From Candidatus Omnitrophota bacterium (GTDB taxonomy: Bacteria > Omnitrophota > Gorgyraeia > Duberdicusellales > 4484-171): a DNA stretch of 64,000 nucleotides. Position numbers and translations under genes: made by a program. The stretch lies in contig JBDRDJ010000004.1 of NCBI GenBank assembly GCA_043820815.1, forward strand, positions 14,956 to 78,955, read 5' to 3'. Below are positions 42,629-64,000 of the stretch, in pieces. The notes beneath the pieces are model-generated. The model did no database searches. It worked only from the letters and a program-made list of their open reading frames with translations, and was not told the origin of the DNA. The number at the start of each line of letters is the position of its first letter. The first letter of the stretch is position 1.

Positions 42629-42667
42629 AACGAATTGCGAAATACGAAATCACGAGGTAATCATTAG

Positions 42668-43779: not shown

Positions 43780-43797
43780 TAATTAAAGGAGTATAGA

Positions 43798-48610: not shown

Positions 48611-48717
48611 CTATCACTCCGCGAGTGATAGTACAGGTGAGAAGAAATAATGTTTGAAGAGAAGCTTATTTTATTATAAAATATTAAATATATGTTACTA
48701 TCACTCCGCGAGTGATA
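48611..48717 (+). repeat. Two REP-like hairpins upstream of the RAYT gene
   Basis: CTATCACT-CCGCG-AGTGATAG at 48611-48631 and CTATCACT-CCGCG-AGTGATA at 48698-48717, same orientation. Confidence 0.7.
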
Positions 48718-48759
48718 TATAGGGAGAATGTAATAAAGCGGGAAAGGAAGAGTTTCAAG

Positions 48760-49479
48760 ATGGGGATTAACTACGATACAGGAGTATATCACGTTTTTAA
48801 CAAAAGTATTGCCAGATATACAATATTTTCTCATGAGCTTGAATTTTCCCGATTTATTGAGACGGTTGATTATTATCAATTAAAAGACCCTCCATTACGG
48901 CTATCTTACTATTTAGAGCGCAATAAGCCGCTAGCTTCAGAGGCAAAAAATAGAAAAATAGTTCCCTTAGATAAAATTAGCGATAATAAACTGGTTGAAA
49001 TTATTGCTTATTGTATTATGCCCACTCATTTTCATATTCTTCTTAGAGAACTTTGTGAAGGCGCAGCGAGTGTTTTTATGAGGAGAACTCTCAATAGCTA
49101 CACCCATTATTTTAACAAAAAGAATAAGCGAAAAGGGCCTTTATGGGAAAGCAGGTTTAAGAAAGTGATGGTTGAAAGCGATGAGCAATTAGTTCATTTA
49201 ACCCGCTATATTCATTTAAATCCTGTTACTGCCTATCTTGTGGATAATCCCGCTGATTGGGAATACTCTTCATATAAGCAATATTTAGGTGAAACTTACG
49301 CAAAATGTATCGATTGCCAATTTAATAATCTTTTGGATATTACCCCGCAGTCTTATAAGGAATTTTGCCAAGATTCTATTGCTTATCAGAGAGATTTAGC
49401 TTCTATTAAGAGGTTAACTCTTGAAGGGGAAGCCATACCCATTAAGAAAACTAACAATACATTTTTATCAGTAGGTTAA
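48760..49479 (+). mobile_element. IS200/IS605-like Y1 (HUH) transposase, REP-associated tyrosine transposase (RAYT)-like
   Basis: GVYHVFNKSI, YCIMPTHFHILL (HUH), LTRYIHLNPV, SSYKQY; start taken at MGINYD. Confidence 0.7.
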
Positions 49480-49497
49480 TAAAAGAGGAGGCGATAA

Positions 49498-49680
49498 ATG
49501 AAGTTAAAAGTAAAATCACAGATGGCGCTTATTTATCTTTTTGCTATCGCTTTTGTTATAGCTTTGATTTTTACTGCGGTTGACCGCGCGCGAAAGAGTT
49601 TTTCAGAATATACCGAGAAAAAAGAAGAAAAAGATAAGTTAATGCATGACAACATGACAAATACAACCAGGAACAGGTGA
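49498..49680 (+). CDS. Small single-pass membrane protein (r), paralogue of q
   Basis: GAGGAGG RBS; MKLKVKS-QMALIYLFAIAFVIALIFTAVDRARKSFSEY. Confidence 0.5.
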   Translation: MKLKVKSQMALIYLFAIAFVIALIFTAVDRARKSFSEYTEKKEEKDKLMHDNMTNTTRNR

Positions 49681-49774
49681 TTTATTTTTCTTCGCCCAAA
49701 TACCTCTGCGGACTTGCCGCAGGGTGGTTCATTTTAATAGGCACATTCTCCGGGGCAGAGGCAGCAGAAGAAAG

Positions 49775-51763
49775 ATGGATATATTTTCCTTAGTATTCGG
49801 CGGCGGCAAGAAAAACCTGGCTCAGGCATTTTTTAAGGGCAATACATTCGAATTGCGGCCTCAGCAGGTTGATATGCTTAAAGCTGTAGATAAAGCTATA
49901 GCCAAAAACAGGCACCTTATAGTTGAAGCAGGAACCGGTGTCGGAAAAAGCATAGCTTATCTTTTACCGTTTATAAAGCGGACAATAGACAAAGACAGTA
50001 AAGTTGTTATATCCACATATACAAAGACTTTGCAGGAACAGTTAGTTAAAAAGGACCTTCCCAGGCTAAAAGAAGTCCTGGGGTTAGATTTTAAGTTTTC
50101 TTTATGTATGGGGTCGGCTAATTACATCTGCTTAAGAAGAGCCCGCCAGAACCAAATATCGGGGATATTTGAATCAGAGAAAGAAAAAGAGGATACATTG
50201 GCAATCCGGGAGTGGCTTAAGAAAACAAAAAGCGGCCTTAAGCCGGAGCTCAATTTTTCTCCTCAGGAAAGCGTATGGAATAAGGTTTGCCGGGAAAGCG
50301 ACCTCTGCATGGGCAGAAACTGCACTTTTAGAAAAGATTGTTTTTACGCAAAAGCAAAAGCAGAGGAATCTAAGGCGAATATTCTTGTTACCAATCACCA
50401 TCTTTTCTTCGCCAATGTCGCATCAGGCGGTGCAGTATTACCATCATTTCAAGCGGTTGTTTTTGATGAGGCCCATACATTAGAGCAGGTTGCGACTAAT
50501 TACTTAGGCATAGAGGTTTCAAATTTTAAAATAAAGTATTTTCTCGACACCCTGTTTAACCCGCAAACAGAAAAAGGGTTATTAAGAGGCATAAAGGGAG
50601 TGCCAAGGCGTAAAATCGGATATATTAGAAATAAACTCAATGACTTAAAAATAGCATCCGAAGATTTCTTCAATGATGCCGTCAGGAAATTCGGCCAGGA
50701 TTCAAAAACCTTACGGTTGAGAAATCCGCCGCTTGTGGCTGTTGTTTTGCAGGAGGCATTTTACAATATCGCCAAAGCTCTCGATGAAATCAAAGAGGAA
50801 GCCGAAAAGGAAGAGGATAAGATTGAGATAAAATACGCCGCATCACGGGCTTATGAATTAAGAACCGCTTTAGGCAACATCGTCTATTTAGAATTGCCCG
50901 GTTATGTTTACTGGCTGGAAATAGAAAACCGGCCGCGGGGGCTAAGGTATACTTTTGCCGCAGCCCCCATAGATATATCGCAGGAATTCAGGACAAAAGT
51001 CTTAGAAAAAACCAAGCCGGTTATACTTACCTCAGCTACGCTGTCAGTAGCAGGGAGCTTTGATTTTTTAAAGAAAAACCTCGGCTTTGATAACAATATG
51101 GATGAGTTAATTCTTGATTCGCCGTTTGATTATGCAAAAAACGTCCTTTTGTATATTCCCAAAGCTGTTTGCGACCCAACTTACGATTATGAAGAATATA
51201 GGGCTTCTTTGCTGTCTCAGATAAATGAGATCCTTCCTTTAATGCAGGGAAGGACATTTATACTATTTACCAGCTTCAAAATGATGTTTAAAATTTATCA
51301 ACAAATCAAGGAGCGCTTCCAAAACCTGAAAGTCCTGCGCCAGGGCGAAGCCCCGCGTTATAAACTCCTTGAGGTATTTAAACAGAGCAGTAACGCGGTT
51401 TTGCTGGGAACAAACACCTTTTGGCAGGGCATAGATATTCCCGGCAGGCCTTTAGAATGCGTTATTATCACCAAACTTCCCTTTGCTGTCCCTGACGATC
51501 CTGTTACAGAGGCTAAAATGGAGCTATTAGAATCAGAAGGAAAAAACCCTTTTAAACATTATCAGATACCGCAGGCGGTTATAATGCTCAGGCAGGGTTT
51601 TGGAAGGCTTATACGCACAAAAACCGACCGCGGCATGGTCGTTATTCTTGACCCCAGAATCAGAACCAGGTATTACGGAAGGGAATTCTTAAAAGCTTTG
51701 CCGCAATGCAGGCAAATTTTTTCCTTAGAATACGCAAAAGGTTTCTTTGCTTTAAGCCGCTAA
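49775..51763 (+). CDS. dinG: DinG/XPD-family ATP-dependent DNA helicase (Fe-S type)
   Basis: EAGTGVGKS, VFDEAH, Cys cluster C…C…C…C (CRESDLCMGRNCTFRKDC), TNTFWQGIDIPG, QGFGRLIR. Confidence 0.8.
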   Translation: MDIFSLVFGGGKKNLAQAFFKGNTFELRPQQVDMLKAVDKAIAKNRHLIVEAGTGVGKSIAYLLPFIKRTIDKDSKVVISTYTKTLQEQLVKKDLPRLKEVLGLDFKFSLCMGSANYICLRRARQNQISGIFESEKEKEDTLAIREWLKKTKSGLKPELNFSPQESVWNKVCRESDLCMGRNCTFRKDCFYAKAKAEESKANILVTNHHLFFANVASGGAVLPSFQAVVFDEAHTLEQVATNYLGIEVSNFKIKYFLDTLFNPQTEKGLLRGIKGVPRRKIGYIRNKLNDLKIASEDFFNDAVRKFGQDSKTLRLRNPPLVAVVLQEAFYNIAKALDEIKEEAEKEEDKIEIKYAASRAYELRTALGNIVYLELPGYVYWLEIENRPRGLRYTFAAAPIDISQEFRTKVLEKTKPVILTSATLSVAGSFDFLKKNLGFDNNMDELILDSPFDYAKNVLLYIPKAVCDPTYDYEEYRASLLSQINEILPLMQGRTFILFTSFKMMFKIYQQIKERFQNLKVLRQGEAPRYKLLEVFKQSSNAVLLGTNTFWQGIDIPGRPLECVIITKLPFAVPDDPVTEAKMELLESEGKNPFKHYQIPQAVIMLRQGFGRLIRTKTDRGMVVILDPRIRTRYYGREFLKALPQCRQIFSLEYAKGFFALSR

Positions 51764-51836
51764 CTAAAGAATGAGATGCGAAGGCAAAGGATATATAAAT
51801 ATAGCCTGTGTCAGTTTAGAGGGGCATATTAATTTT

Positions 51837-53159
51837 TTAAATGAGTTTATCCGCAATATAAGGTATTTGGCTTACCATATATAAAGGCAGGGAAAGTATT
51901 CTATCTTGCAGGGATATGTTTTCGACCGAGAGCTTTATTCCAAGCGCAGATTTCTTTTGCTCAAGAAATAAATGTAATGATTTTAACCTTCCTGATCTAC
52001 CCGCTTTTACTTCTATAGGGATAATATATTTATTTCTTGTTAAAAGGTAATCTACTTCAGCCATACTTCTTCTTTTATCCCTGGCCCAGAAAAAAAGCTG
52101 ATTATCTTGAAAGGGGTCCATGTATGCCCTTAGCTCTTGAGCCACAAATTGTTCAGCTACCGCGCCGGCATTTACCTGCATAATATCTTTGGCTTTTTGT
52201 GTTTCAGCCTGCAATCCGCATGCTTTTTGCATGAGTCCGATATCTAAAAAAGTAAGTTTAATCTTTTGCAAATTTATTTGTGAATTCAAAGGAATCCCGG
52301 ATGCCTTTGAAGCATACACAGGCCTTACTACGCGCGCCATAGATAATAACTCTATAGCGTTTCTTAAATCCCGAGATTTTACTTCCCTATCTATATTTAC
52401 AAACTTAATTCGTTGCCCGGTTAAGCGCGGTGCGGCATCAAAAACTTTTTGAAGATATTTATGGTGAGACAAATTTGCGTATTTACCGAAATCATTCCGG
52501 TATGTTTCAAGAAGGCCGGTTTGTATGCGTTGGCAATCGAAGAAATTTAAGCTTGAAACATATTCTTTAACTACTTCAGGCATGCCGCCAATGATTAGAT
52601 ATATACGGAGTAAATCCAGCAGTTTTTCATGAATAGCTATGTCAATAGGCAATATGTCCCTATGGTTTATTATGTGCTCTTTTAGATTTGTATAACCAGA
52701 TGCATCGAGAAATTCAAAGAATGACATCGGTTCCATATTGATAAAAGACACTCGGCCGACAGGAAACCTAAAATCTTCCTGTTTAAAGCTAAATTCCAGC
52801 AATGAACCAGCCCCTATTACAGGCTGTTGGGGCATTAATTCTTTAAAATATCGCAGAGATATAATAGCAGAAGGGCACTCCTGTATTTCGTCAAGAAAAA
52901 TAAGACAGTCATTAGTGATGTGGACGTTAAGGAGCAATTGAAGTTTATTGATAATATCTTGAGGTTTTAGATTTTGAAAACATTCTTTTAAGTTGGGGGT
53001 GAGTTCAAAGTTTATGGAGATTATATTTTTAAAATATTTTGTCCCAAAAGTTTCTATCGTATAGCTTTTTCCAACCTGACGAGCCCCGCGCACAAGAAGG
53101 GGGATTTTATTACCTTTATTTTTCCACTCCAATAATGCTTTTTCTATGTATCTTTTCAT
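51837..53159 (-). CDS. AAA-family ATPase (DUF4143-containing type)
   Basis: LLVRGARQVGKS Walker A, LIFLDEIQ Walker B, C-terminal EVDYLL…IPIEVK nuclease-like fold motif. Confidence 0.75.
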   Translation of the reverse strand: MKRYIEKALLEWKNKGNKIPLLVRGARQVGKSYTIETFGTKYFKNIISINFELTPNLKECFQNLKPQDIINKLQLLLNVHITNDCLIFLDEIQECPSAIISLRYFKELMPQQPVIGAGSLLEFSFKQEDFRFPVGRVSFINMEPMSFFEFLDASGYTNLKEHIINHRDILPIDIAIHEKLLDLLRIYLIIGGMPEVVKEYVSSLNFFDCQRIQTGLLETYRNDFGKYANLSHHKYLQKVFDAAPRLTGQRIKFVNIDREVKSRDLRNAIELLSMARVVRPVYASKASGIPLNSQINLQKIKLTFLDIGLMQKACGLQAETQKAKDIMQVNAGAVAEQFVAQELRAYMDPFQDNQLFFWARDKRRSMAEVDYLLTRNKYIIPIEVKAGRSGRLKSLHLFLEQKKSALGIKLSVENISLQDRILSLPLYMVSQIPYIADKLI

Positions 53160-53538: not shown

Positions 53539-54399
53539 ATGGATGCTCCTGTACCAATTTTCTTTGCTTACGGACTGCTTCTGCTATCAATATGCATTAT
53601 CTGCTATTACGGCGTAACATTTCTTCTTAAAAGATTTGACCGCGCCCAGCAAAGCAAAGCCGAGAAAACCGCCGCCCAGTTTGAGGAGATGTTTCTTTTC
53701 TTAAGAAAAGAAGCTCTTATTGTTCTATACATATTTGTGCCTCTTCTTTTAGGCTTAGTCAGTTTTATCGCGACAAAGAAGTGGTGGGTTGCTTTAAGTT
53801 TTGCCTTGGTTGGGGCGTTTTTCCCTTTATGGCTTGTGCGTTTTCTTGAAAGAAGAAGGCAAAATAAATTTGTTATTCAGCTTGTCGATGGGCTTATGAT
53901 CATGAACAGCTGTTTAAAGGGCGGCTTGACATTAATCCAGTCTTTTGAAATCTTAGCAGAGGAAATATCCCCTCCAATGAGCCAGGAAATTATGCTGCTT
54001 AACCGTGAAATTAAAGTAGGTGTTACGCTTGAAGAGGCGCTTCTGAGGCTTAACAACAGGATGCCGTCTGAGGAGATGATACTTATTTCTTCGGCTATTC
54101 TGGTTGCGCGCGAAACAGGAGGCGACTTAACTAAAGTTTTTTCAAGGCTCATCGAGACAATTAGAGACAGGCTTAAGCTAAGGGAGTTGGTTTCAACTCT
54201 TACGCTTCAGGCGCGGCTTCAGGCAATAATAATTTCCCTTCTTGGCCCTGCGTTTTTCTTTATCGTGCGAAAAATAAAACCTGACCATTTTGATATTATG
54301 TGGAAAGATGAGCTTGGAAGGATGATTTTAGGCATCGCGCTTGTGCTTCAGATAATAGGTTTTATATTAATAATTATATTCGGAAAGGTTGAGATTTAA
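53539..54399 (+). CDS. tadB: Tad pilus inner-membrane platform protein TadB (T2SSF family)
   Basis: QLVDGLMIMNSCLKGGLTLIQSF, polytopic; adjacent to tadC. Confidence 0.8.
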   Translation: MDAPVPIFFAYGLLLLSICIICYYGVTFLLKRFDRAQQSKAEKTAAQFEEMFLFLRKEALIVLYIFVPLLLGLVSFIATKKWWVALSFALVGAFFPLWLVRFLERRRQNKFVIQLVDGLMIMNSCLKGGLTLIQSFEILAEEISPPMSQEIMLLNREIKVGVTLEEALLRLNNRMPSEEMILISSAILVARETGGDLTKVFSRLIETIRDRLKLRELVSTLTLQARLQAIIISLLGPAFFFIVRKIKPDHFDIMWKDELGRMILGIALVLQIIGFILIIIFGKVEI

Positions 54400-55277
54400 T
54401 GAGCTTGCTACTTTATATTTTATATGGATTGTTGGTCTTTGGGTTTATCCTGTTTTTCATAGGGCTTTTTCCAAAACCGCCTGATACGGTTTCCATATTT
54501 GGAGATGAGGCAAAAGAAAAGCGGGGTTCGGTACTTTCCCCCATACTTGCGCCCTTTGCGCCGTTTAACAAAATAATTCTTAAGTCATTTCGTTTAGAAG
54601 AGCGCTTAAACAAAAATATTTACCTGGCGCGCTGGAGAGTTACTCCCGCGGAATTTCTCGTAGGCAAAGAGCTGTTGGCTTTGGTTTTTCCCTTGGCCAT
54701 GATTATGTTTAATTTAGGAAATATCTGGTGGCGCCTGGGTGCGGCATTATTTGGTTTTATACTTCCCGATATTATTCTTAACTCAAGGGTGCGCAGGAGA
54801 AAATTCCTGATTAATCGGGTTTTGCCTGAAACAATCGATTTGCTCGGGCTTTGCGTTGGCGCCGGCTTGGATTTTATGGCCGCGGTGCGCTGGGTCGTAG
54901 ATAAAGTAAAAATCAACCCCATGATCGAAGAATTAGGATTGGTGTTAAAAGAAATAAATGTAGGCAAGCCGCGCGTTGAATCTCTTCGCGCAATGGCTAA
55001 GAGAGTTGAAATTCCCGATGTTACTTCATTTGTTAGAATCTTAATTCAGGCAGACCGCATGGGAACTCCTGTTGAGGAAACTTTTAAAATATTATCAGAA
55101 GACACCCGTATGCGCAGGTTTCACCGCGGCGAACGCCAAGCAATGAAAGCCCCTCTAAAAATGCTCATCCCTCTGATTTTCTGTATCCTTCCTGTCATTC
55201 TAATTATCGTAGCCGGCCCCATCCTTATCAGGTTCATGAAAGAAGGCGTATTCGGCCCTGCCGGCCTTGCCAGATAA
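54399..55277 (+). CDS. tadC: Tad pilus inner-membrane platform protein TadC (T2SSF family)
   Basis: LPETIDLLGLCVGAGLDFMAAV, RRFHRGERQAMKAPLKM. Confidence 0.8.
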   Translation: MSLLLYILYGLLVFGFILFFIGLFPKPPDTVSIFGDEAKEKRGSVLSPILAPFAPFNKIILKSFRLEERLNKNIYLARWRVTPAEFLVGKELLALVFPLAMIMFNLGNIWWRLGAALFGFILPDIILNSRVRRRKFLINRVLPETIDLLGLCVGAGLDFMAAVRWVVDKVKINPMIEELGLVLKEINVGKPRVESLRAMAKRVEIPDVTSFVRILIQADRMGTPVEETFKILSEDTRMRRFHRGERQAMKAPLKMLIPLIFCILPVILIIVAGPILIRFMKEGVFGPAGLAR

Positions 55278-55378: not shown

Positions 55379-55996
55379 TTATTTCCCTAAAGGTTTGAAG
55401 GTTGGCATCTTTACTCTTGGCGGGCTATTTTTTGAAGGGAAAATACGTTCTGCCTTAAAAGAAAAAGCAGCCCCACCGATGCCGGCTCTATACGGAGTGC
55501 TTTGCCGGGATTGCGGTGCGGTAAATGTTTTAACAGGGTTTGTTGAGGATGGATTTTTTGCTGGTTGTGATTCAACAGGCGAAGGTGCTAAGGGAATAGG
55601 TTCAGCTGGCTCAATTTCTGCCTTGGCAGGTGTAGGCATACCGCCTGCACCGGGCATTGCGGCTTGAGCTCCTGCGCTTCCAGCGCCGCCGCATCTTTGC
55701 AGAGCGTTCTGGCGAAAACGGGGAAATATAGCGGGTTTGTCATTTTCCGCTCTGCGCACAGCTAATCTGGCAAATAAGCCGCAGCGGCTGCCTTCTCTTT
55801 GGGCAAAGTCTCCCTGGCGAAGCCGGCCTCCACTGAGGCTGGCTGTGCCTCTCTGACGAAAACCTCTGTTTTGAAACACTCCATCAAAAAGCCTGCGGGC
55901 ATGGGCAGTATTTTCCAATAACCCTGCGTTAACAATAACTGCTAAGGCAACAACTGTGAAATATCTCTCTAAAGCTTTTATATTCTGCATTTCCAT
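55379..55996 (-). CDS. Secreted low-complexity Cys-containing protein, paralogue of 61570-62226
   Basis: GAGGT RBS before Met10; signal ending AHA-R; shares G.RCG, RR…KPAIFPRFR and C.GG..GAG motifs with the other copy. Confidence 0.55.
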   Translation of the reverse strand: MEMQNIKALERYFTVVALAVIVNAGLLENTAHARRLFDGVFQNRGFRQRGTASLSGGRLRQGDFAQREGSRCGLFARLAVRRAENDKPAIFPRFRQNALQRCGGAGSAGAQAAMPGAGGMPTPAKAEIEPAEPIPLAPSPVESQPAKNPSSTNPVKTFTAPQSRQSTPYRAGIGGAAFSFKAERIFPSKNSPPRVKMPTFKPLGK

Positions 55997-56239
55997 CCCT
56001 ACCTCTTTTTTATCATTTTTCATTATTTTATAACATGAGAATTGCTTTTTTGCAACCTTATTTTAAAAAAAACTTAGCACATTTCCAGGTGTTAATTTTG
56101 GGTCATTCGTAAATAATGTAAAGATATTTATATAACCCTCGGCATTGTAAGGCATAACAAAAATCTCTTTTTGCGCAGTCTTGACGGGTGTGGGGTCTAT
56201 TTTTGTTATGCCGTAAACCACAAAATTTACGAAAAAATC

Positions 56240-56494
56240 TTAATTTTCAGTACAGAATAAATAAATTAGCAGGTAGAGGGAGCATATTACCAAGGCAGAA
56301 AGCACGTGGCTATACCCTGCTTTGGCAAGCCAGGGAATAAGAACATCGATGTCGAGGATTTTAAAATAGTTCAGATATGCGGGAGTACCCGTTATTAAGG
56401 AAATAATAAATATTATTATAATATGAGCGCAAGCTGAGAAAAAGATGGTTTTAATCAGAGCATCCAAATATCTATTTTTAGCTATTTTCTTCAT
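56240..56494 (-). CDS. Small membrane protein
   Basis: 84 aa with three hydrophobic segments. Confidence 0.4.
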   Translation of the reverse strand: MKKIAKNRYLDALIKTIFFSACAHIIIIFIISLITGTPAYLNYFKILDIDVLIPWLAKAGYSHVLSALVICSLYLLIYLFCTEN

Positions 56495-56652
56495 AAGGAA
56501 ACTATTTTACCATAGATTGTTTTGACTGGCAAGGCCTACCTTAAATGTAAACCCACCTGAAACCATAGCAGTAAGCAATATGGCCGCCGAATATAACAGA
56601 CAACATGTTTATAGTTTGCTGATTATGAGCATGTTACGCATCTATTTGTCCA

Positions 56653-56686
56653 CTTAGGTGGTCAAGTAGAGACTTGACCACCTAAG
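56653..56686. repeat. 14-bp perfect inverted repeat
   Basis: CTTAGGTGGTCAAG-tagaga-CTTGACCACCTAAG. Confidence 0.6.
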
Positions 56687-56689
56687 ACT

Positions 56690-57049
56690 TTCGTGGTGAT
56701 TCGTCTCTAATTCGTGGCAATTCGTGTTAAAAAGAAAGCGTTCTCGCAAATACCCCTAAATCGCCTTGTTTTTTGTTTCGGCGATGTGGTATATTCAAAT
56801 GAATACTTTTGCGAATTGAAGAAATTTTTTTCTGGGGAGACGACAAAGGCATTCTTGTCACAGATTACACAGATTGGATGTTGATTACACAGATGAATAT
56901 CTGTGATTAGGGGTGCAAAGCCACGGACCTAATAGCAAATAGCAAATGGCCTATTGCTTATGGTCAATATAAACCATAAGTTCTAAGCCATTAGCTGTTA
57001 GCCAGGAAAGCCGGGTTGCCGAAATTCCTTCGGTAATCCGGCCTTTTTT
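56690..57049 (+). promoter_or_regulatory. Promoter-leader-terminator module P3 ahead of the 1426-aa gene
   Basis: Four TTCGT direct repeats (56690, 56700, 56711, 56721); box GAAAGCGTTCTCGCAAATAC. TTGTTT 56766-56771, 18 nt, TGgTATATT (56790-56795), N3, ATGA. AAAGCCACGG at 56917-56926; terminator GCCGGGTTGCCGAA-attcc-TTCGGTAATCCGGC + T6 (57010-57049). Confidence 0.55.
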
Positions 57050-57241
57050 ATTGGGATGTAATACATCCCAATAAAAAAGGTCCCGAACGAGTCCGGGGGA
57101 ATTGTCCGAAGGAAAATTACCCCGGTATACAGCGAGGAGGGGCTATTAATAAAATAGATTGATATGATTATAGAAGCGGATATCCGCGGATATAAACGCG
57201 GATTTACGCTTGCTTGATAAAGGGTAAATGGGGAGGCACAT

Positions 57242-60200
57242 ATGAAAAACAGGGGAGTTTTTGGGGGAGTTCTGTGGTTAATTCTATTACTGCTTACTTT
57301 CTCTTTGTTTTTTACAAACGATGTTGAGGCACAGTTATTCCGGGGAAGATTTCGTTCGCAAAGTTACAGTTATTCATCACCAAGCAAGAGTTCAGCGCCT
57401 GCGGCAAATTCTCAATCTCAAAGCACATCACAACCTCAAACACAACCAGGAACTTCCAAACCGGCCCCTAAAACAAATGTAACCCAGGCACAACCCAAAG
57501 CTAATACCCAGAAACCGTTAACAAACCCCATGAGCACTAATAGAAACGCCCCATACGCGATGCATTTACGGGGGACAAACGGTAAAAGTGTAACTTTCTA
57601 TACTCCTGATGCAGGAAAAACATACCGTACGGTTGATGGCTTAAGCCGCAAATCAGGTGCGGTTGCTCCTTCTCAGGTAAGCAATGCCTGGATTTCTTAT
57701 GGTGATAAAGCTAATCCCAACTGGCAGAGAATCACTCCCGATCAAATTTCAAGTTTTCATTTTAATCCTGCTGGTTCAAAAGCCGGAGGTTCTGGAAGCA
57801 TTACATATTATTTTAAGCAAACTCCAAACGGAGGTTATTATCAGGCGGCAAATGGCCAGACCCGCAGGCCTGTAAGCAGTGTAGCCTTACCAGCCCAGAT
57901 GAAAGCATGGGTTGGAACCGGAGATATTAAGAGCCCTAAGTGGCAGAATTTAGGCCAGTATAGCCAGGGGCCTGCAAAGTTAAATTTAGGAAATCTGAAA
58001 GTTACAGGGGCGATTTTTAGAAGTTTAGGCGCTGCCGCAGTTAATCAGGCAAAGCAGGAAATTGCGGCCAAAGCTAACATCACTGACGCAGTTATTTTAG
58101 GAAGCCCTGATTTAGCGCGCCGCTCAGGCTCAGGGATGCTTGAGCTTCGCGTCTGGAATTTAAGGCAGCAGGTTGTTACGGGTTTAGGCAAAGACAGCGG
58201 CCTCTTAGGCGCTGATGGAAGAGGCACATCAGGCATTCAATCTGTTGGGCCTAACTGGCTTGTTTTCAACCATGGCCAGGTGAGCAGAGCATATAAAAGC
58301 ACAGTTGATTGGGGGAGAAAATTGGCTGACAGCTTTGGTGTTCCTAAGGATAGCCCGATAAGAGATGTTTCGTTAGGCGCTTTTGATTGGGCAACAACCG
58401 CCGGTAACCTCGCAGCTGCCCGATTTACTCCCTCGATTCACGCAAAGGGCGTTAAATACGGCGCTTTTACGGATTGGAATTTACCCCACGAAACTACAGT
58501 GGCGGTCAAAACCATATCTCCGGTAAATCAGAACATCCATGTATTAGGGCTTAGCATAAACTCACCACGCATTCATCAAGGCCAGCTTACTTTTACCCAG
58601 CCGGTTTATGATAATCAAAAAAGACTTATTGCCAATCAATTTAAGCCTGTTCTTGAACCTTACCGGGTAGTTGAGAGAATGGTTGCCGGACAATGGGAAG
58701 CTTCAACGGGCCGTATCGGGCCATATACAATTTTTAAAGGCCAAGCTCATAACCCTAATGTTAATGATCTCGGCAAGCTTGTACTTAGCCCTGATAGAAT
58801 TATAATGGAAGGTAAAGGTTGGAAGCAGGATGGTATGATCAGGCCTTCACCCATTGAGGGTTTAAAAGTAATATCAGGCCAGCTTATAATAGCCGGCAAC
58901 AATGGTTTTAACCCTAATACGCACCCCTTATACCGCCAAAACTCAGACATTGAGCCTTTTGTAAAAATCGGTGATACTTTTGTAACCAACACAATTGACC
59001 GCTTTGACCAGGCAATCGGAGTTTTCGGCCAGGGCAGAACCATGCTTTTTGCCCGCCAGAGTGAATTCTCCGTAAATGATAATTCTTTAAAAGGCGATAT
59101 ATATGCCGGCATACCTAAGTCAATAGAAGGATCTTTAAAGAGCATGAAAGTTTACTGGGCGGCAGTTTCTCAAACGCCTATTGCCAAAGATATGCTTCAA
59201 GCCCCCGTAGTTTCACTGGCTAACATCGACCCGGTTAATCCTTTCCCGCAAGGCCAGGCAATACAAGGAATTGATAAAGAACCTTTGCTTTTTGTAAAGC
59301 AAGCTGCTTACAGTATAGATAAGCCCGGTATTGTTACGCAAACACCTTGGGAGTTTACCGGTCGTGCATCACAAACCATTTTTAAAGCCGCCGGTGACAT
59401 AAACGGCCTTAAACAATTTACAGATTTAGCTAAAATAAATACACAATCTCACGCCCCGAAATTAAGCCAGCCCCCGATGCCTGAGCCTGCGCTTGTGCCT
59501 ATTACCCAGACAGATAAGTTTGCATCTTTGGCTGATTTTAATCCTCAATCGTTTGATTTTGCTTCAATCGATGTAAATGCAGAGAAAAAGGATCCCCGCC
59601 TCGATATAATCGCGCCATCATTAGAGAAACTTGAAATCACTTTTCCAAAAATATCAAACGCCTCAGAATATGCTTACGCTGAAGAAACACTGCAAATGTT
59701 TAATGTGCCCGGATACTCTATGGAAAACTTAGATGGCCTTGGGCCAAAACAGGATTTAGTTATAAGCAAGAAATTATTTAATGGCCCTGATATTGAAATA
59801 AAATCACTTGAATTTAAACTATCGCCTTCAGCTGAGCAAATTGAGATTGCGCGCATTGAGAAGATATTTAATGAGCATTTTGCTGCTGAAGAATTACTCG
59901 GGCATCAATCAAGCGCAAGCGCCAGAAGTATTCCAAAACAAGAAATTGATATTGTCGAATCACCGCTGGGGGGCGGTAAGGGAGACCCGCTTTTAGACAG
60001 CAACCCGTTTAATGATATGGCTGATGACCTGAGAGATATGGGAGTTTATCCGGAAAAAGGAAGCAGCCCGGCCGAGTTTTATATAGCAAAACAATTGGCT
60101 TATTTTGTTGCAAAACCGGCTGATTCGGTTAGGGAAATAAGTGAGGCTATCGTATCGAAAGGGGAGGATTACACAGATAAAGTTGTTACAGTAGTATCTC

Positions 60201-61522
60201 AAATAAAAGATTCAGAAACAACCCAGAAAGTTATATCCCAAGCGGCAAAGATAGCTCAGTATAAGCCTGAAAATACCGGCAGCCAAAGTATAATTAAGAG
60301 CCAGTACAGTAAAATACAAAAACCCGGTTTAGGCGGTTTTGGTTCTCAAAAACCCAATGATATGGCGGATTTCAACGCTGACCCGAAGAAGCTGTCAGCC
60401 CAGCTTAATATTGATAGAGCAATGGAGAAGCAAAATCAAAACATGGCCGAACTTGTCAAGGCACAGCAAGAAATATACATAGTTCAGGTTATGAATGTGA
60501 ATACAACCAAGGTGTACGATGTTATTCGTCAAGATGTACCTGTTGGCAATGAAAAATTACGCGGTTATGATATTTTAGACAAAGAAACAGGAAAGTATTC
60601 TCAGGAACTTCCCCAAGGCAGATATGAAGTTATTAGGGTAGTCCGCGGCAGCGCAGAAAACCCAATAGTAGAAAGGAAGGTTTATATAACAACTGACAAA
60701 AGGGTTCATGATTGGATTGACGAGAAAACAACTCTTATGAAACCAGCAGAAATCCAAGTTTGGCTTGAAGGCGCAGGGTGGAAAGCAAGAATCGCCCCAA
60801 TAGTTGAAGCAAGCGGAAACTACAAAAAAGATTCAACCGGACGTATTATAGTTGGCATTGAGGCTTTAACAAATGATGGAAAACCAAAAGGCGACGGCCT
60901 TAAATATGGGGACGATGCCGATGAGATCCTAAAAACAATGCCGCCGGTTGTAAAATCAAAGATTGATATGTATCGAAGCCCTGACATTGTTAATAATAAC
61001 GACCAAGCCTTAAATATCGCTAAAATGTTTGGTTTAGGAAGTGACGCGATGAGGCAGGCAATGGAGAATAATAACGCAGAACGTGTAAGCGCGCATGTAA
61101 ACGCAAGCTATATAACGCCAATCGCAAAGCCAGGCAAAGGAGAACTTTCACCCAGTGAACAGCTGTACGCACAGCAAAAAAACCGCACCCAAGCTGATAT
61201 CGATTTAGAAACAAAGCAAACCATGAATTACTATATTGAACAAGGGATAAAAAGTAAAAAGGCATTTAGTAATATTCTAAGTACTTCTGCAAAAGATTTG
61301 GGGCTTAAAGAGTCAGAATACTATAAGGTAGTTGGCGAAATTTGGTGGAAGAGAGGCGTAAATGAGAAGAACCCGGGGGCATTTGGTTTGACATCTTTTT
61401 ATGGCTGGAAACAAGCTTATTCAGCAGCAAAAGAGAAAATGTCAGGCACCAGTAAGCCTGCTGAAAAGAAATTTACCCAGCAGCCGCCAAGGCCGGCGCC
61501 TATTGGAACGATAATGCCTTAA
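57242..61522 (+). CDS. Large secreted protein of unknown function (1426 aa)
   Basis: GGGGAGG RBS; signal peptide …TNDVEA-QLF; S/Q/P/T-rich linker; no domain recognised. Confidence 0.7.
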   Translation: MKNRGVFGGVLWLILLLLTFSLFFTNDVEAQLFRGRFRSQSYSYSSPSKSSAPAANSQSQSTSQPQTQPGTSKPAPKTNVTQAQPKANTQKPLTNPMSTNRNAPYAMHLRGTNGKSVTFYTPDAGKTYRTVDGLSRKSGAVAPSQVSNAWISYGDKANPNWQRITPDQISSFHFNPAGSKAGGSGSITYYFKQTPNGGYYQAANGQTRRPVSSVALPAQMKAWVGTGDIKSPKWQNLGQYSQGPAKLNLGNLKVTGAIFRSLGAAAVNQAKQEIAAKANITDAVILGSPDLARRSGSGMLELRVWNLRQQVVTGLGKDSGLLGADGRGTSGIQSVGPNWLVFNHGQVSRAYKSTVDWGRKLADSFGVPKDSPIRDVSLGAFDWATTAGNLAAARFTPSIHAKGVKYGAFTDWNLPHETTVAVKTISPVNQNIHVLGLSINSPRIHQGQLTFTQPVYDNQKRLIANQFKPVLEPYRVVERMVAGQWEASTGRIGPYTIFKGQAHNPNVNDLGKLVLSPDRIIMEGKGWKQDGMIRPSPIEGLKVISGQLIIAGNNGFNPNTHPLYRQNSDIEPFVKIGDTFVTNTIDRFDQAIGVFGQGRTMLFARQSEFSVNDNSLKGDIYAGIPKSIEGSLKSMKVYWAAVSQTPIAKDMLQAPVVSLANIDPVNPFPQGQAIQGIDKEPLLFVKQAAYSIDKPGIVTQTPWEFTGRASQTIFKAAGDINGLKQFTDLAKINTQSHAPKLSQPPMPEPALVPITQTDKFASLADFNPQSFDFASIDVNAEKKDPRLDIIAPSLEKLEITFPKISNASEYAYAEETLQMFNVPGYSMENLDGLGPKQDLVISKKLFNGPDIEIKSLEFKLSPSAEQIEIARIEKIFNEHFAAEELLGHQSSASARSIPKQEIDIVESPLGGGKGDPLLDSNPFNDMADDLRDMGVYPEKGSSPAEFYIAKQLAYFVAKPADSVREISEAIVSKGEDYTDKVVTVVSQIKDSETTQKVISQAAKIAQYKPENTGSQSIIKSQYSKIQKPGLGGFGSQKPNDMADFNADPKKLSAQLNIDRAMEKQNQNMAELVKAQQEIYIVQVMNVNTTKVYDVIRQDVPVGNEKLRGYDILDKETGKYSQELPQGRYEVIRVVRGSAENPIVERKVYITTDKRVHDWIDEKTTLMKPAEIQVWLEGAGWKARIAPIVEASGNYKKDSTGRIIVGIEALTNDGKPKGDGLKYGDDADEILKTMPPVVKSKIDMYRSPDIVNNNDQALNIAKMFGLGSDAMRQAMENNNAERVSAHVNASYITPIAKPGKGELSPSEQLYAQQKNRTQADIDLETKQTMNYYIEQGIKSKKAFSNILSTSAKDLGLKESEYYKVVGEIWWKRGVNEKNPGAFGLTSFYGWKQAYSAAKEKMSGTSKPAEKKFTQQPPRPAPIGTIMP

Positions 61523-61524
61523 GT

Positions 61525-61550
61525 AGGGGCCGACCCCTGTGTCGGCCCGT
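61525..61550 (+). repeat. GC-rich hairpin element, copy 1
   Basis: AGGGGCCGACCCCTGTGTCGGCCCGT directly after the stop of the 1426-aa gene. Confidence 0.6.
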
Positions 61551-61569
61551 TAAAGTAAGGTGAAAGAAA

Positions 61570-62226
61570 ATGGTTAGAGAACGAAATTTCAGAATAGCGA
61601 TTTTGGTGTTTATTGCCATATGCTTGCTCACAGCGCAAGATGCCCATGCCCGCGAGGGGCGCCTGCTGGGAGGAAGATTAGGCGGCGGCGGGCTATTTAG
61701 CGGCCGCTGCGGCCCGATTAAGAAAATGTCTCTGCGTAGAGAAGCAAGAGGAAAGCCGGCGATTTTTCCCCGCATTCGCGCCGCGGCTTACAGGGATTGT
61801 ATTGGCGGAAGCTGCGGGGCAGGATTAAGCGCAGGTAAGCCCGCGCCCGGTGCATTCTCAGATATGAAGAAAGAGGAAGGCCAGGCTTTTGAGAAAGTTC
61901 CCCTGGCGCTAAAACCAGAATCAACTGCTCGATCTTCAGATAAAGGAGCCGCTACTTCACCGCGTGATAGAAATCCTCTTGTCCAGCAAGAATATAAAGA
62001 AACTATAAAATCACCGGATAGAGGCCCTTCAGCACAGCCAAAACGCCAAACCTGGCCGCAATATCGTGATAACGCAGTTGAGAGAGATTCTCAATCTTAT
62101 GCAAGGCCTTTTATGGGAACTTCGGAATACGGTTCAAAACTTCAAGAATATAGATTGGGCCTGCCAAAAAGTACCCCTTATATAAATAGAGTTAAGCAAG
62201 ATTATCAAAGAACAAGTAACCGATAG
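61570..62226 (+). CDS. Secreted low-complexity Cys-containing protein, paralogue of 55379-55996
   Basis: AAGGTGA RBS; signal ending AHA-R; GRCG, RREARGKPAIFPRIR and CIGGSCGAG motifs. Confidence 0.6.
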   Translation: MVRERNFRIAILVFIAICLLTAQDAHAREGRLLGGRLGGGGLFSGRCGPIKKMSLRREARGKPAIFPRIRAAAYRDCIGGSCGAGLSAGKPAPGAFSDMKKEEGQAFEKVPLALKPESTARSSDKGAATSPRDRNPLVQQEYKETIKSPDRGPSAQPKRQTWPQYRDNAVERDSQSYARPFMGTSEYGSKLQEYRLGLPKSTPYINRVKQDYQRTSNR

Positions 62227-62317
62227 CAAGATTATAACAAACTGTTAATAAAACACTTATGTTATCTATTGTCCACATTCATACCGGGAATGGTGCCATA
62301 CCCTTGCAATAATTATA

Positions 62318-62343
62318 GCGGGCCGGCACAGGGGCCGGCCCCT
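62318..62343 (-). repeat. GC-rich hairpin element, copy 2 (inverted)
   Basis: Reverse complement AGGGGCCGGCCCCTGTGCCGGCCCGC = copy 1 with paired substitutions in the stem. Confidence 0.6.
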
Positions 62344-62409
62344 ACAATACTTTTATTTTTCTTTCATCGTTCATTGCTGCGAAGCCAGGAGCGAAGCGAA
62401 GGCGAAGCA

Positions 62410-62601
62410 GAAAGCGGTTTCACAAATAGGCGATATTTACCTTGCTTTTTTAAGGGCGGATATGGTATACTGACATGAAAGCAAGAGTTCTTTGGATACA
62501 AAAAAAGCCACGGAAAAAACGCGGATAACCGCGGAGGTTAATATGTCCGTGGCAAAACAATTTGAATGATAAAGGGAGGCGATGTGCCTCTCTTTTTTTT
62601 T
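62410..62601 (+). promoter_or_regulatory. Promoter-leader-terminator module P4
   Basis: Box GAAAGCGGTTTCACAAATAG; TTGCTT 62442-62447, 18 nt, TGgTATACT (62466-62471), N3, ATGA. AAAGCCACGG at 62504-62513, with GCCACGGA/TCCGTGGC pairing (62507-62514 / 62546-62553). Terminator GGGAGGC-gatgt-GCCTCTC + T9 (62574-62601). Confidence 0.6.
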
Positions 62602-62629
62602 GATAAGATTGAGGGGAGCAAGGAGGTGT

Positions 62630-64000
62630 ATGATGAAAAGCAAAAGTAAAAACCTAATTATAGCTTTAAATCAAACCAAGCAAGCGCCTTTATTTTTTAT
62701 TAAAATTATATTAATAACAGCTATGCTTTGTTCTTTTTCAACCGATATTTATGCACGTGGTGGAAGTAGACAACCAACCAAGGAAGATCCGATATCAATG
62801 CCAACTCCTCTTTTGCATGATCAGCCATCATCTGTCCCGGCAGTAGTGACAAGAACACCGCTTTCAGTTAATAATCCATCAGCATTTTCGTCACCGACAA
62901 GGCCTTTTATGCCAACAGCACCTTCTCGATCATGGTCGTCTGTAACTGCTCCAGGAACATTGCCAAGAATTCCACAGCCTGTTTCTCCGGCAGTTACAGG
63001 AAATTCGCCGTCTTTATCAAGGCCGGCATTGCCAAGTATGCGGCCTAATTCAAGCGCAGCGCTAACCCACAATATCCAGCCTGTTGCACGAGCTAATTCC
63101 AGCCGATTGACTGCGGTTTCGCCTGTGGTAAATCCACTTACTGCGGTTGTGTCTTCGCCAATGCCATCGGGCCGATTGAATAACCCGACGGCAATAACAG
63201 CTAATAGCCGTCCAAGTTTAACCATGCCTGATTCTTCTGCAAGATTAAGGCCAGAGGTAATTGCAACAACTGCTGTGCCTGCCATGCCGCGAATGCAGGA
63301 TTTTGCAATTCCTGCGGCAGTGCAGCCTCGGCCTCAAGCACAGCGTCCGGCGCTGCAGCCAGTTATAGCAGCAAGAGAACCATTGCAAAGAATGGCAATG
63401 CCAAGAGTTGAGCCAATTCACCGCATCCAGCCGCAAGCAATGGCAGCCATGCCAAGAGTTGCGCCTGTTGAACGAGTTAACCCGCAGATGGCAAATATTC
63501 CAATGCCGAATAGTTTAAGAAACACGCAATACAATCCAAGTTTGCGCCCTCAAATAAATAACTTTGCAATGTTTACCCATGCACAAGCGGCCATTCGTAA
63601 CCATAGTGTTATGAGTAGGTTATCAATTAGCCCAATTTCTCAACCTATTTATAATATCAAGAGCAATTTTGCATCCGCGGCAAATCGTAACGTATCTTTT
63701 AACAATCATTTAAATCAAAGTTTTATAAAAACCGCAAACTTATCGCTGAATTCTCAAAGCGCGTTTAACCCGGCATTTTCTAAAATGGCAAAGTTAAACC
63801 CGCAATTGGCGCCGCGTAATAATTATAAATTAAATAATACTGCGCAATTAAATGCTGCCTTTAAACCTTCATTCGCCGGTTTAAGCGATGTTTCTCTAAG
63901 GCCGATAAAACAACCAGCATCTTTAGCTGTGCAAAAGCCGCTTATGCCGGGAAGTTTAAACGCGAGCCTTATGCGATTTACATATCTCTCTAAGAATTTA
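62630..64000 (+). CDS. Secreted Pro/Ala/Ser-rich protein, 3' end beyond the window (absent from the ORF track)
   Basis: AGGAGG RBS 62621-62626, ATGATG start, signal peptide LFFIKIILITAMLCSFSTDIYA. I translated 457 codons by eye to the window end without a stop; contains repeats MPRVEP/MPRVAP. Confidence 0.65.
   Translation, partial: MMKSKSKNLIIALNQTKQAPLFFIKIILITAMLCSFSTDIYARGGSRQPTKEDPISMPTPLLHDQPSSVPAVVTRTPLSVNNPSAFSSPTRPFMPTAPSRSWSSVTAPGTLPRIPQPVSPAVTGNSPSLSRPALPSMRPNSSAALTHNIQPVARANSSRLTAVSPVVNPLTAVVSSPMPSGRLNNPTAITANSRPSLTMPDSSARLRPEVIATTAVPAMPRMQDFAIPAAVQPRPQAQRPALQPVIAAREPLQRMAMPRVEPIHRIQPQAMAAMPRVAPVERVNPQMANIPMPNSLRNTQYNPSLRPQINNFAMFTHAQAAIRNHSVMSRLSISPISQPIYNIKSNFASAANRNVSFNNHLNQSFIKTANLSLNSQSAFNPAFSKMAKLNPQLAPRNNYKLNNTAQLNAAFKPSFAGLSDVSLRPIKQPASLAVQKPLMPGSLNASLMRFTYLSKNL

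Follow-up and report, generated by a model that had tools for sequence, protein, structure and literature searches.

The 1426-aa secreted protein ABH872_00705 (here G) may fill, in this genome, an accessory slot that is conserved in the Tad (Flp) pilus locus of Omnitrophota, being riboswitch-controlled and related to attachment, an explanation to which we give about an even chance of being right. The gene belongs to a Candidatus Omnitrophota MAG and was analysed within a 64,000-nt stretch (the window), together with ABH872_00700 (L) and ABH872_00710 (R) from the same MAG, which encode two small secreted paralogues. Lying 3' of tadB-tadC, the slot would be transcribed as a second unit, putatively driven by the promoter type and the c-di-GMP-I (GEMM-I) riboswitch-terminator leader of the pilin array.

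Organization of the tad-linked gene cluster

The three ORFs reported in the first-pass annotation are present and their coordinates match NCBI genes (Table 1). The tadB-like and tadC-like platform genes, with Pfam T2SSF matches (E 4e-19 and 9e-16, respectively), lie immediately 5' of the cluster, and the unit of G follows directly. Both small ORFs had been described as facing away from the giant gene; this is true of L, which is divergent, but R is co-directional and starts 47 nt 3' of the G stop codon. L, whose ATG at 55996 is preceded by the RBS GAGGTAGGG, lies on the opposite strand from G, with its own promoter-like sites and without a riboswitch. The 84-aa membrane-protein ORF upstream of L has homologues located directly after tadC at two related loci, L002 (E 3e-18) and L003 (E 1e-15).

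Table 1. Features of the tad-linked cluster and of the pilin array leader, in window positions.
Feature	Position	Strand	Basis or remark
Promoter, GEMM-I-type aptamer (39891-40053) and terminator before the pilin array	39802-40105	+
Flp-like pilin array	40106-44376	+	preceded by the leader above
tadB-like platform gene	53539-54399	+	Pfam T2SSF
tadC-like platform gene	54399-55277	+	Pfam T2SSF
Small paralogue L, ABH872_00700, 205 aa	55379-55996/56023	-	NCBI gene
Unannotated 84-aa membrane-protein ORF	56240-56494	-	same strand as L; homologues in L002, L003
Promoter-like site near the 84-aa ORF and L	56532-56504	-	promoter scan
Promoter of G	56735-56795	+	upstream GAAA-N4-(T/C)TC element, extended -10 TGGTATATT
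c-di-GMP-I (GEMM-I)-type aptamer in G leader	56839-57024	+	Rfam RF03167, model R1
Intrinsic terminator, 14-bp stem and T-run	57010-57052	+	terminator scan, fold
Perfect palindrome after G-leader terminator	57042-57080
Giant G, ABH872_00705, 1426 aa	57242-61522	+	NCBI gene
Tandem ~50-aa duplication in G, aa ~116-165 and ~186-238	57587-57955	+	Smith-Waterman
Domain of G shared with P0004/L017, aa 341-744	58262-59473	+	phmmer, BLASTP, HMM
Left arm of 30-nt inverted repeat bracketing R	61523-61552	.	directly after G stop codon
Small paralogue R, ABH872_00710, 218 aa	61570-62226	+	NCBI gene
Right arm of 30-nt inverted repeat	62316-62345	.	27/30 complementary to left arm
Third transcription unit, secreted Pro/Ser/Asn-rich ORF T from 62630	62411-64000	+	extends beyond window end

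Relatives of TadC with 62-76% identity were found in 16 Omnitrophota contigs, and in those with 62-68% identity tadC is followed by an above-threshold c-di-GMP-I riboswitch and then by secreted or giant ORFs. Leaders above Rfam gathering (RF01051/RF03167) were detected at loci L005 (two in tandem), L009, L010, L011, L014, L015 and L017. The order in L014 is tadA, riboswitch, Flp pilin array, tadB, tadC, riboswitch, a 92-aa secreted ORF and a 2640-aa ORF, and a riboswitch after tadC is also present in L005, L009, L011 and L015. G, L and R have no relatives among the other slot occupants (the L009 and L015 proteins and the L015 giants). The functional tie of the giant to the Tad system, as first proposed, was borne out in part: G adjoins tadB/tadC, shares promoter and leader with the pilins, occupies a slot that is syntenic in relatives and has a ~90-aa module in common with the L014 giant, but no tad genes lie within 10 kb of its only clear homologue, P0004 at locus L017.

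A shared promoter and c-di-GMP-I riboswitch-type leader

The promoter-leader previously said to be common to the giant and the pilin array was recovered: the two share one promoter family and each has a leader of GEMM-I type. The promoter, AAAGCGKTTTCRCAA followed by GATATGGTATAYT, was found before the pilin array (39802-39871), G (56735-56795) and the next secreted ORF (62411-62471), and its upstream GAAA-N4-TTTC element is kept in relatives. By sequence and structure, the leader family is of the c-di-GMP-I (GEMM-I) riboswitch type. The clade-specific covariance model R1, built only from the relatives' above-threshold copies and leaving out those of the window, matched the aptamers of the pilin array (37.5 bits, E 4e-7) and of G (24.7 bits, E 4e-4); against Rfam RF03167 they scored 26 bits (E 0.011) and 21.9 bits (E 0.14), respectively, below the gathering threshold of 59 bits. 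The window leaders align to the relatives' riboswitches with every core segment conserved, and the core GGCA...GCAAAGCCACGG...AGCCGGGUUGCCGAA is kept. Across 15 aptamers, 95% of cells were paired and 14 of 18 pairs showed compensatory change. Also retained are the positions aligning to the ligand-contacting nucleotides of V. cholerae Vc2 (G20, A47 and C92).

The terminator of the G leader was the best match of the terminator scan and is present in the minimum-free-energy fold (z = -9.3). The 3' strand of the aptamer serves as its 5' arm, which makes the terminator the expression platform, and this overlap predicts a c-di-GMP ON switch. With no ligand, the 14-bp terminator (57010-57042) would form; with c-di-GMP bound, the aptamer would hold its 3' strand and transcription would read through. 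Ligand-dependent read-through at both leaders would mean that high c-di-GMP turns on pilins and giant together.

The window aptamers could be degenerate, being below gathering and carrying large insertions: in the G copy the first hairpin is expanded by 52 nt, the second holds a long insertion, one nucleotide is deleted, and the second helix includes two non-standard pairs. They might even be decayed relics, with the pilins, the giant and the third ORF co-regulated by the promoter and the GAAA-N4-TTTC element, acting as an operator for a protein regulator, plus simple attenuators. We consider this rather unlikely. It would fit the sub-threshold scores, the missing GNRA tetraloop, which is seen in relatives and absent from both window aptamers, the conservation of the upstream element, and the third unit (62411-62630), which has the same promoter and a leader terminator (62571-62595) but no significant GEMM-I aptamer by model R1 (9.8 bits). 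Against it stand the core segments, all of them kept together with the Vc2-aligned positions, the significant R1 matches, and the aptamer-terminator overlap, preserved exactly as in relatives.

The giant protein G

G is composed of a signal peptide, an S/Q/P/T linker, two ~50-aa repeats, a conserved ~400-aa domain and an orphan C-terminal half. It has a pI of 9.2, is Cys-free and lacks transmembrane segments beyond the signal peptide. Signal peptides were assessed from sequence alone in L, R and G (charged n-region, hydrophobic core, cleavage at AHA-R, AHA-R and VEA-Q, respectively; the hyphen marks the site), and all three appear to be of Sec type; G would be exported by Sec. These signals count against the first-pass idea of a cargo of the Tad machine, no sign of passage through the secretin having been seen. 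The internal duplication noted earlier, with the motif AW...GD...P.WQ, is supported by a Smith-Waterman score of 80, against 26 +/- 5 (maximum 58) in 2000 shuffles, and was missed by BLASTP self-comparison. In agreement with the first-pass annotation, which recognised no domain in the giant, sequence searches of Pfam, NCBIfam, PHROGs and PDB identified none.

The ~400-aa domain is shared with P0004, a hypothetical protein of ~809 aa (JGI metagenome 3300045146, contig Ga0438316_0000030), by exhaustive phmmer (E 2e-12) and BLASTP (E 1e-21). P0004 resembles G in its signal peptide, P/Q-rich linker, Trp/Pro motif (W..P.DP) and domain (25-32% identity), and its gene likewise follows a promoter of this type and an above-threshold c-di-GMP-I riboswitch. 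In contrast to G, it is about half as long, lacks the C-terminal half, contains the N-terminal repeat only once, and is flanked by a GGDEF gene immediately upstream and by no L/R-like neighbours. The first ~90 aa of the domain are also found in the 2640-aa ORF that follows tadC at L014 (BLASTP E 2e-6), and a domain HMM built without L014 matches that giant with E 2.6e-8. Similarity between the two giants is limited to these ~90 aa.

G can be described, on these features, as an apparently fast-evolving, basic, Cys-free extracytoplasmic protein. Since no function-bearing domain was found and two AlphaFold runs gave low pLDDT (32 and 48), the adhesin reading is inferred from context: the c-di-GMP riboswitch-type leader shared with pilin genes suggests that G is probably an attachment-related surface factor. 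G could instead be a secreted enzyme or lytic effector against prey or host envelopes, following the cell-wall-degradation model of Omnitrophota giants. This role has been proposed for pilus-flanked giant ORFs (PMC10066038; bioRxiv 10.64898/2026.06.07.730766), and a protein with a signal peptide and no anchor could be released; we regard it as unlikely, however, as no hydrolase or catalytic family was matched in Pfam, NCBIfam or PDB sequence searches and no glycoside hydrolase genes occur among the neighbours examined.

The small paralogues L and R

The paralogy first proposed for the small proteins survives alignment (BLASTP E 3e-12, 36% identity over 92 aa). Both signal peptides end as described (AHA-RR in L, AHA-RE in R), and two of the three shared motifs are exact, GSRCG/SGRCG and (V/L)RR..KPAIFPR(F/I)R, but the third is only approximate (C-GGAGSAG in L, CIGGSCGAG in R). 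After the signal peptide, L has an Arg/Gly-rich N-terminus, a C-x29-C loop with KPAIFPR and a Pro/Ser-rich tail, while R has a Gly/Arg-rich N-terminus, the same loop and a charged tail; the low-complexity tails are probably disordered. The mature proteins have pI values of 11.6 (L) and 10.2 (R), each with a net charge of about +18, and would thus be small secreted polycations with a ~30-residue KPAIFPR loop between two Cys. In the KPAIFPR heptad all codon differences are at third positions, and synonymous differences occur in 12 of 25 conserved codons, which argues for protein-level selection on the similarity in that frame. L and R therefore appear to be real protein-coding, lineage-specific paralogues.

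Their GC richness was also confirmed (0.52-0.54 against about 0.40). By codon position, GC is 0.55-0.57 (first), 0.53-0.55 (second) and 0.37-0.38 (third), so the excess is confined to positions 1 and 2, position 3 being like that of neighbouring genes; it reflects Gly/Ala/Arg/Pro content and not a foreign source.

The suggested accessory or anchor role did not fare as well: adjacency is its sole support, position being the only tie of L or R to G, and no homologue of either was detected in any sequence search. A tblastn search of the whole window returned only the reciprocal copy, leaving two known family members. The most likely role for L and R would be binding of anionic envelope or target-surface polymers within the same adhesive output as G. 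A tentative alternative, of minor but appreciable probability, is that they are functionally unlinked to G and arose by a local inverted duplication, which would account for their flanking position; they would then act independently as secreted polycationic effectors of small size, such as peptides directed at host or prey membranes or envelopes, or DNA or EPS binders. A family of two is the usual sign of a recent local duplication in a lineage; moreover, L sits on the other strand with promoter-like sites of its own, P0004 lacks L/R-like neighbours, and relatives' slots hold unrelated small proteins. The extreme charge and Cys-bounded loop also recall cationic effector peptides, but by resemblance only. 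However, both copies are kept under purifying selection while flanking one gene, and R would at least be co-expressed with G, given the short distance and the absence of a terminator-like site between them. The site scan found no promoter-like site there either; R is probably co-transcribed with G and would very probably be switched on with it.

R is bracketed exactly by the 30-nt inverted repeat, which is 90% complementary and absent elsewhere in the window, with 0 chance matches expected. This would suit a small mobile cassette with 30-bp terminal inverted repeats (61523-62345), inserted behind G with R as passenger, an origin that we find highly improbable: the flanks contain no transposase or target-site duplication, neither the window nor 18 related loci contain further copies, and L has no such repeats. 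Moreover, each arm is a stable hairpin (the left one an 8-bp GC hairpin without a T-run), so mRNA-end or processing hairpins explain the repeat equally.

Relation to known systems

GEMM riboswitches are typically found ahead of genes for adherence and pili, and activation by c-di-GMP (ON control) is an established mode of regulation for type IV pilin and adhesin genes (PMC6366702, PMC4933901). The c-di-GMP riboswitches that act on pilus, adhesin or surface-protein genes include B. thuringiensis Bc2-cap, V. cholerae Vc1-gbpA and the class II C. difficile Cdi-2-4-pilA1 (PMC4933901, PMC6366702). The window resembles these systems in having an aptamer of the same clan in the 5' leaders of pilins and a large secreted protein, a terminator as expression platform and predicted ON control of adherence functions. 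It differs in its Omnitrophota host and Tad/Flp (type IVc) locus, in aptamers with large helix expansions that fall below the Rfam threshold and whose ligand binding is predicted, and in the reuse of one promoter-leader module for pilins and an accessory secreted slot.

Large Omnitrophota ORFs are often found beside pilus or secretion genes (PMC10066038; bioRxiv 10.64898/2026.06.07.730766). Like those giants (Seymour et al. 2023, PMC10066038; bioRxiv 10.64898/2026.06.07.730766; 10.1101/2023.11.21.568195), for which host or prey contact roles are proposed, G is exported, domain-poor, rapidly diverging and located beside Tad/T2SS-type genes. Unlike them, at 1426 aa (4.3 kb) it is much smaller than the >20 kb class, has a signal peptide but no transmembrane helices, and shares only its ~90-aa module with one tad-linked giant; the texts of the three papers make no mention of riboswitch control. 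The cluster is probably a lineage-specific instance of a known theme and not a new system, in which G would most plausibly act as an attachment or host-contact factor working beside the pilus.

Organization of the Tad locus and the L/G/R cluster

The 1426-aa secreted protein (G) and the small secreted proteins encoded to its left and right (L and R) follow tadB/tadC-like genes in a Candidatus Omnitrophota MAG. Upstream of these lies the remaining Tad/Flp locus, composed of RcpC/CpaB, secretin, ATPases, the pilin array and a TadG-like protein, and the neighbours of the three genes match the T2SSF, T2SSE, Secretin, RcpC and TadE/G-like families. An insertion with an IS200-like gene, a helicase and a DUF4143 ATPase breaks up the locus; it is absent from relatives such as L014, one of the related contigs. 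Near the window start, a group I intron (Rfam 88 bits) adjoins a tRNA gene (2982-3221 and 3298-3368).

Features of the Tad locus, the leaders and the L/G/R cluster in the window
Feature	Position	Strand	Remarks
Match to covariance model R1	19931-20002		Rfam-annotated copy; 21.8 bits, E 0.002
RcpA/CpaC-type secretin	33165-34793		C-terminal TonB_C domain fused
TadZ-like (ParA/MinD) and T2SSE fusion	34795-36963		traffic ATPase (TadZ-TadA)
Second T2SSE ATPase gene	36972-38036		after the TadZ-TadA fusion
Shared promoter	39802-39871	plus	before the pilin array
Match to covariance model R1	39891-40053		pilin leader; 37.5 bits, E 4e-7
Flp-like pilin ORF array	40106-44376
23S rRNA intervening-sequence protein gene	44839-45219		after the pilin array
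IS200-like transposase, DEAD/Helicase_C_2 helicase, DUF4143 AAA ATPase	48712-53159		between the TadG-like gene and tadB
tadB/tadC-like genes	53539-55277		directly before the L/G/R cluster; Pfam T2SSF
L (ABH872_00700)	55379-55996	minus	NCBI gene
ORF84, 84-aa membrane-protein ORF	56240-56494	minus	between L and G; without NCBI locus tag (tags 00700, 00705, 00710)
Shared promoter	56735-56795	plus	before G
Match to covariance model R1	56839-57024		G leader; 24.7 bits, E 4e-4
G (ABH872_00705)	57242-61522	plus	NCBI gene
R (ABH872_00710)	61570-62226	plus	NCBI gene
Shared promoter	62411-62471	plus	before ORF T
Third-leader terminator	62571-62595	plus	leader of ORF T
ORF T, third secreted ORF	from 62630, runs off the window	plus	Pro/Ser/Asn-rich, low-complexity

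Putative c-di-GMP riboswitches before the pilin array and G

The first-pass annotation had assigned G and the pilin array to one promoter-leader family, and this was borne out: three plus-strand units, those of the pilin array, G and also ORF T, have a common upstream element, AAAGCGKTTTCRCAA, and an extended -10, GATATGGTATAYT. Judged by sequence and covariance, the family is a c-di-GMP-I (GEMM-I) riboswitch (Rfam RF01051/RF03167, clan CL00126). The motif AAAGCCACGGRYCC of the G and pilin leaders was found again after tadC in five related contigs (L005, L009, L011, L014 and L015), and it also precedes the homologue of G in L017, a locus from another metagenome. By Rfam, the elements of the relatives are c-di-GMP-I or c-di-GMP-I-GGC riboswitches, above gathering (58-71 bits). 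The window aptamers contain insertions of tens of nucleotides in both hairpins, and in Rfam the pilin and G leaders scored 26.0 bits (E 0.011) and 21.9 bits (E 0.14), respectively, below the RF03167 gathering threshold (59), and were not listed in the gathering run. Both were matched by a covariance model (R1) built solely from the riboswitches of seven relatives.

Alignment of the aptamers showed the core GGCAAA ... GACGCAAAGCC-ACGG ... AGCCGGG-UGCC and the two-hairpin architecture in the window leaders. Across 15 aptamers, in an alignment fitted to the model, pairing is kept in 95% of cells, and compensatory change is seen in 14 of the 18 pairs; the copy in the G leader has two non-standard pairs and a 1-nt deletion. 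Both window copies, when aligned to the Rfam consensus, have the canonical residues at the ligand-contact positions: GG(C/U) at G20, CAAAGCC at A47 (an A, where the GGC variant has a G) and UUGCC at C92, in the numbering of the V. cholerae Vc2 aptamer.

In every copy, an intrinsic terminator uses the 3' strand of the aptamer, GCCGGGUUGCC, as its 5' arm, so that ligand binding should block termination, and we infer a c-di-GMP ON logic for the window leaders. The terminator of the G leader, a 14-bp stem (57010-57042) with a T-run, was the best of the region in the terminator scan and is formed in the minimum-free-energy fold (z = -9.3). In other systems, it is established that pilin and adhesin genes can be under such ON control (PMC6366702, PMC4933901). 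The third leader (62411-62630) was rejected as a GEMM-I aptamer, since its 9.8 bits with R1 were not significant.

A conserved GAAA-N4-TTTC inverted-repeat element was found at window positions 39799-39816, 56732-56749 and 62408-62425, and also in the promoters of L009, L011, L014, L015 (e.g. TGAAAATGTTTTCA) and L017, ~45-60 nt upstream of the -10. It resembles a binding site for a protein regulator that would act in addition to the riboswitch.

A further c-di-GMP-I riboswitch is located at window 19930-20084 (Rfam 36.5 bits, just over the gathering threshold of 35). It is followed by a 113-aa ORF (20264-20605) that matches no Pfam family and starts with a signal-peptide-like segment; this ORF may be another member of the c-di-GMP regulon.

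The giant protein and its homologues

G is encoded by 4.3 kb, contains no cysteine and has a pI of 9.2; its signal peptide is its sole hydrophobic segment (signal peptides were called by eye). The internal duplication proposed earlier withstood a shuffle control: residues ~116-165 and ~186-238 align with a Smith-Waterman score of 80, against 26 +/- 5 and a maximum of 58 in 2000 shuffles. The absence of a recognisable domain was likewise upheld, as Pfam, NCBIfam, PHROGs and PDB sequence searches with L, G and R returned nothing meaningful; none of the three has a Pfam or NCBIfam match, including to the known Tad/Flp component families (Flp, TadV, TadA-G, TadZ, RcpA-C). Single-sequence AlphaFold models of G were unusable (pLDDT 32 for aa 96-760 and 48 for aa 1051-1426).

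G falls outside two known kinds of large protein. The giant ORFs of Omnitrophota exceed 20 kb and usually encode many transmembrane helices (Seymour et al. 2023), a size that G does not reach. It also lacks the defining features of the classical large adhesins, namely RTX/Bap type I-secreted proteins, autotransporters and Ig-like repeat proteins: no Pfam families for RTX, Ig-like/cadherin repeats, a C-terminal beta-barrel or a T1SS signal were found at E <= 0.1, no PDB sequence match was found at E <= 10, and the short N-terminal duplication is its only repeat.

A word-indexed protein search with G recovered G alone, and no relatives were found in viral contigs. Exhaustive phmmer against 1.84 billion representatives gave a single match, P0004 of locus L017 (E 2e-12; BLASTP E 1e-21), and a metagenome scan returned the same organism and no other. 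The true ORF of P0004 reaches further upstream, to a GTG start, and its architecture is that of G: signal peptide, P/Q linker, Trp/Pro motif and a ~400-aa domain. It is preceded by an above-threshold riboswitch and, immediately upstream of this, a GGDEF diguanylate-cyclase gene (L017 7906-9072); no GGDEF motif was detected in the window by regex. No tad genes were found within 10 kb of P0004. A tad-linked giant in L014 has ~90 aa in common with G (BLASTP E 2e-6) and was matched, among 971 ORFs, by an HMM for which G and P0004 were the only input (E 2.6e-8). Sequence relatives of G are thus few.

A probable riboswitch-controlled position downstream of tadC

Sixteen Omnitrophota contigs were gathered via TadC (62-76% identity). 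L014 shows the uninterrupted layout: two tadA-type ATPases, a 480-aa protein, a riboswitch (3222-3307), the Flp pilin array, tadE/F/G-like genes, tadB and tadC, and then a second riboswitch (11076-11170), a 92-aa secreted ORF and a 2640-aa ORF. L005, L009, L011 and L015 also have this second riboswitch after tadC, ahead of large ORFs that are secreted or membrane-anchored. In L005, two c-di-GMP-I aptamers in tandem (14797-14902 and 14953-15059), with a GCCGGGUUGCCGAA hairpin arm after each, precede a single large, membrane-anchored ORF past tadC. The protein content of this position, the transcription unit downstream of tadB-tadC, varies: G-like sequence was found in L014 alone, L/R-like sequence nowhere, and the best homologue of G is unlinked. 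The recurrence of a second riboswitch and exported ORFs after tadC suggests that G occupies a conserved, riboswitch-controlled accessory slot with fast protein turnover.

Eight of the 16 contigs (L001, L003, L004, L008, L011, L012, L013 and L016) stop within ~1 kb past tadC, suggesting that the slot is hard to assemble; it is perhaps repetitive or strain-variable. Low-complexity ORFs resembling ORF T, with weak, composition-driven similarity, are convergent to tadC in L001, L005, L006, L007 and L010.

L lies downstream of ORF84, on the opposite strand to G. Homologues of ORF84 are located directly after tadC in L002 (1573-1842, E 3e-18) and L003 (4046-4309, E 1e-15), on the strand of tadC, so the ORF84-L unit of the window looks inverted relative to these genomes.

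The small secreted paralogues

The similarity first noticed between L and R survived alignment (BLASTP E 3e-12, 36% identity over 92 aa), and each was the reciprocal best and sole match of the other in tblastn of the whole window. By this measure they are one protein family, true paralogues. In their core, 12 of the 25 conserved residues are coded by different synonymous codons, and in KPAIFPR all codon differences fall at third positions. This pattern indicates that the similarity was kept at the protein level in the annotated frame, which makes overlapping antisense ORFs unlikely genes, and it argues against L and R being non-coding or antisense artefacts, a reading that was rejected. A DNA-level inverted repeat of the two genes was rejected, since recognisable similarity is left only at the protein level.

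Both genes were confirmed as GC-rich (0.52-0.54 vs ~0.40). The excess is located in codon positions 1 and 2, with GC3 (0.37-0.38) at the level of the neighbouring genes; the richness therefore reflects Gly/Ala/Arg/Pro-rich proteins, and a foreign origin of these patches was ruled out by the normal GC3. With cleavage at the predicted AHA|R site, the mature forms of L and R have pI values of 11.6 and 10.2, respectively, each with a net charge of ~+18. L and R are genuine, strongly cationic proteins, predicted to be secreted, that carry a loop bounded by Cys.

No further members of the family were found. A search of 5.8 billion proteins with the L/R alignment matched L and R themselves alone, and no relatives were detected in GTDB genome contigs, in viral contigs or in 18 related loci (tblastn and motif regex). 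The small secreted proteins in the slot of the relatives are unrelated to L and R (hhalign probability 0.3%).

R starts 47 nt past the stop codon of G, with no promoter-like or terminator-like site in the gap, so R is probably part of the riboswitch-controlled transcript of G. A 30-nt inverted repeat (61523-61552 / 62316-62345) exactly brackets R; its arms are complementary at 27 of 30 positions (90%; 0 matches expected by chance), each is an 8-bp GC hairpin, and the first is not followed by a T-run. No further copies were found in the window or in the 18 related loci. The repeat may represent mRNA-end hairpins or a cassette scar.

The three proteins had been proposed as a cargo, adhesin or effector set functionally tied to the Tad-like machine. 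The proposal is partly supported: G is placed in the putative riboswitch-controlled slot after tadC, but L and R are tied to G by adjacency and nothing more, and a local inverted duplication accounts for their arrangement equally well. Our best guess is that L and R bind anionic surfaces within the adhesive output. It is quite improbable, in our estimate, that they form a new class of secreted polycationic Cys-loop proteins, dedicated partners of the c-di-GMP-induced large protein, which together with the slot would constitute an undescribed, rapidly diversifying "attachment cassette" of Omnitrophota Tad systems; as dedicated partners, they might tether G to the envelope or pilus, or prime the surface of the prey or host.

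Implications for Omnitrophota

On the best reading, G would be a lineage-specific exported protein, co-induced with the Flp pilins by c-di-GMP. This molecule is a classic adherence signal, and GEMM riboswitches are typically found before adherence, pilus and motility genes (PMC6366702, PMC4933901). In Omnitrophota, a host-dependent or predatory way of life has been connected with Tad pili and with the large, poorly conserved exported ORFs that adjoin pilus genes (PMC10066038; bioRxiv 10.64898/2026.06.07.730766). The control of pilus and surface-protein genes by c-di-GMP riboswitches, and the location of large exported proteins next to pilus loci in Omnitrophota, are a known theme. To this theme the orphan proteins L, G and R add a new member; their worth is that of candidates and does not lie in any novel mechanism. 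A useful by-product is that the leader family could be identified, together with a conserved, probably riboswitch-controlled slot after tadBC.

Bacteria of the Omnitrophota are ultra-small and uncultured, and are believed to live by attachment to other cells. Their main suspected tools for such contact are Tad pili and large exported proteins. The regulation of these tools is undescribed in the two Omnitrophota papers, whose texts, in a term search, contained no mention of a riboswitch or c-di-GMP. The locus suggests that a single c-di-GMP riboswitch module would turn on both the pilin array and the variable exported-protein slot after tadBC, which gives a concrete regulon, and the region downstream of the second riboswitch is a simple place to seek candidate host-contact proteins in other Omnitrophota genomes.
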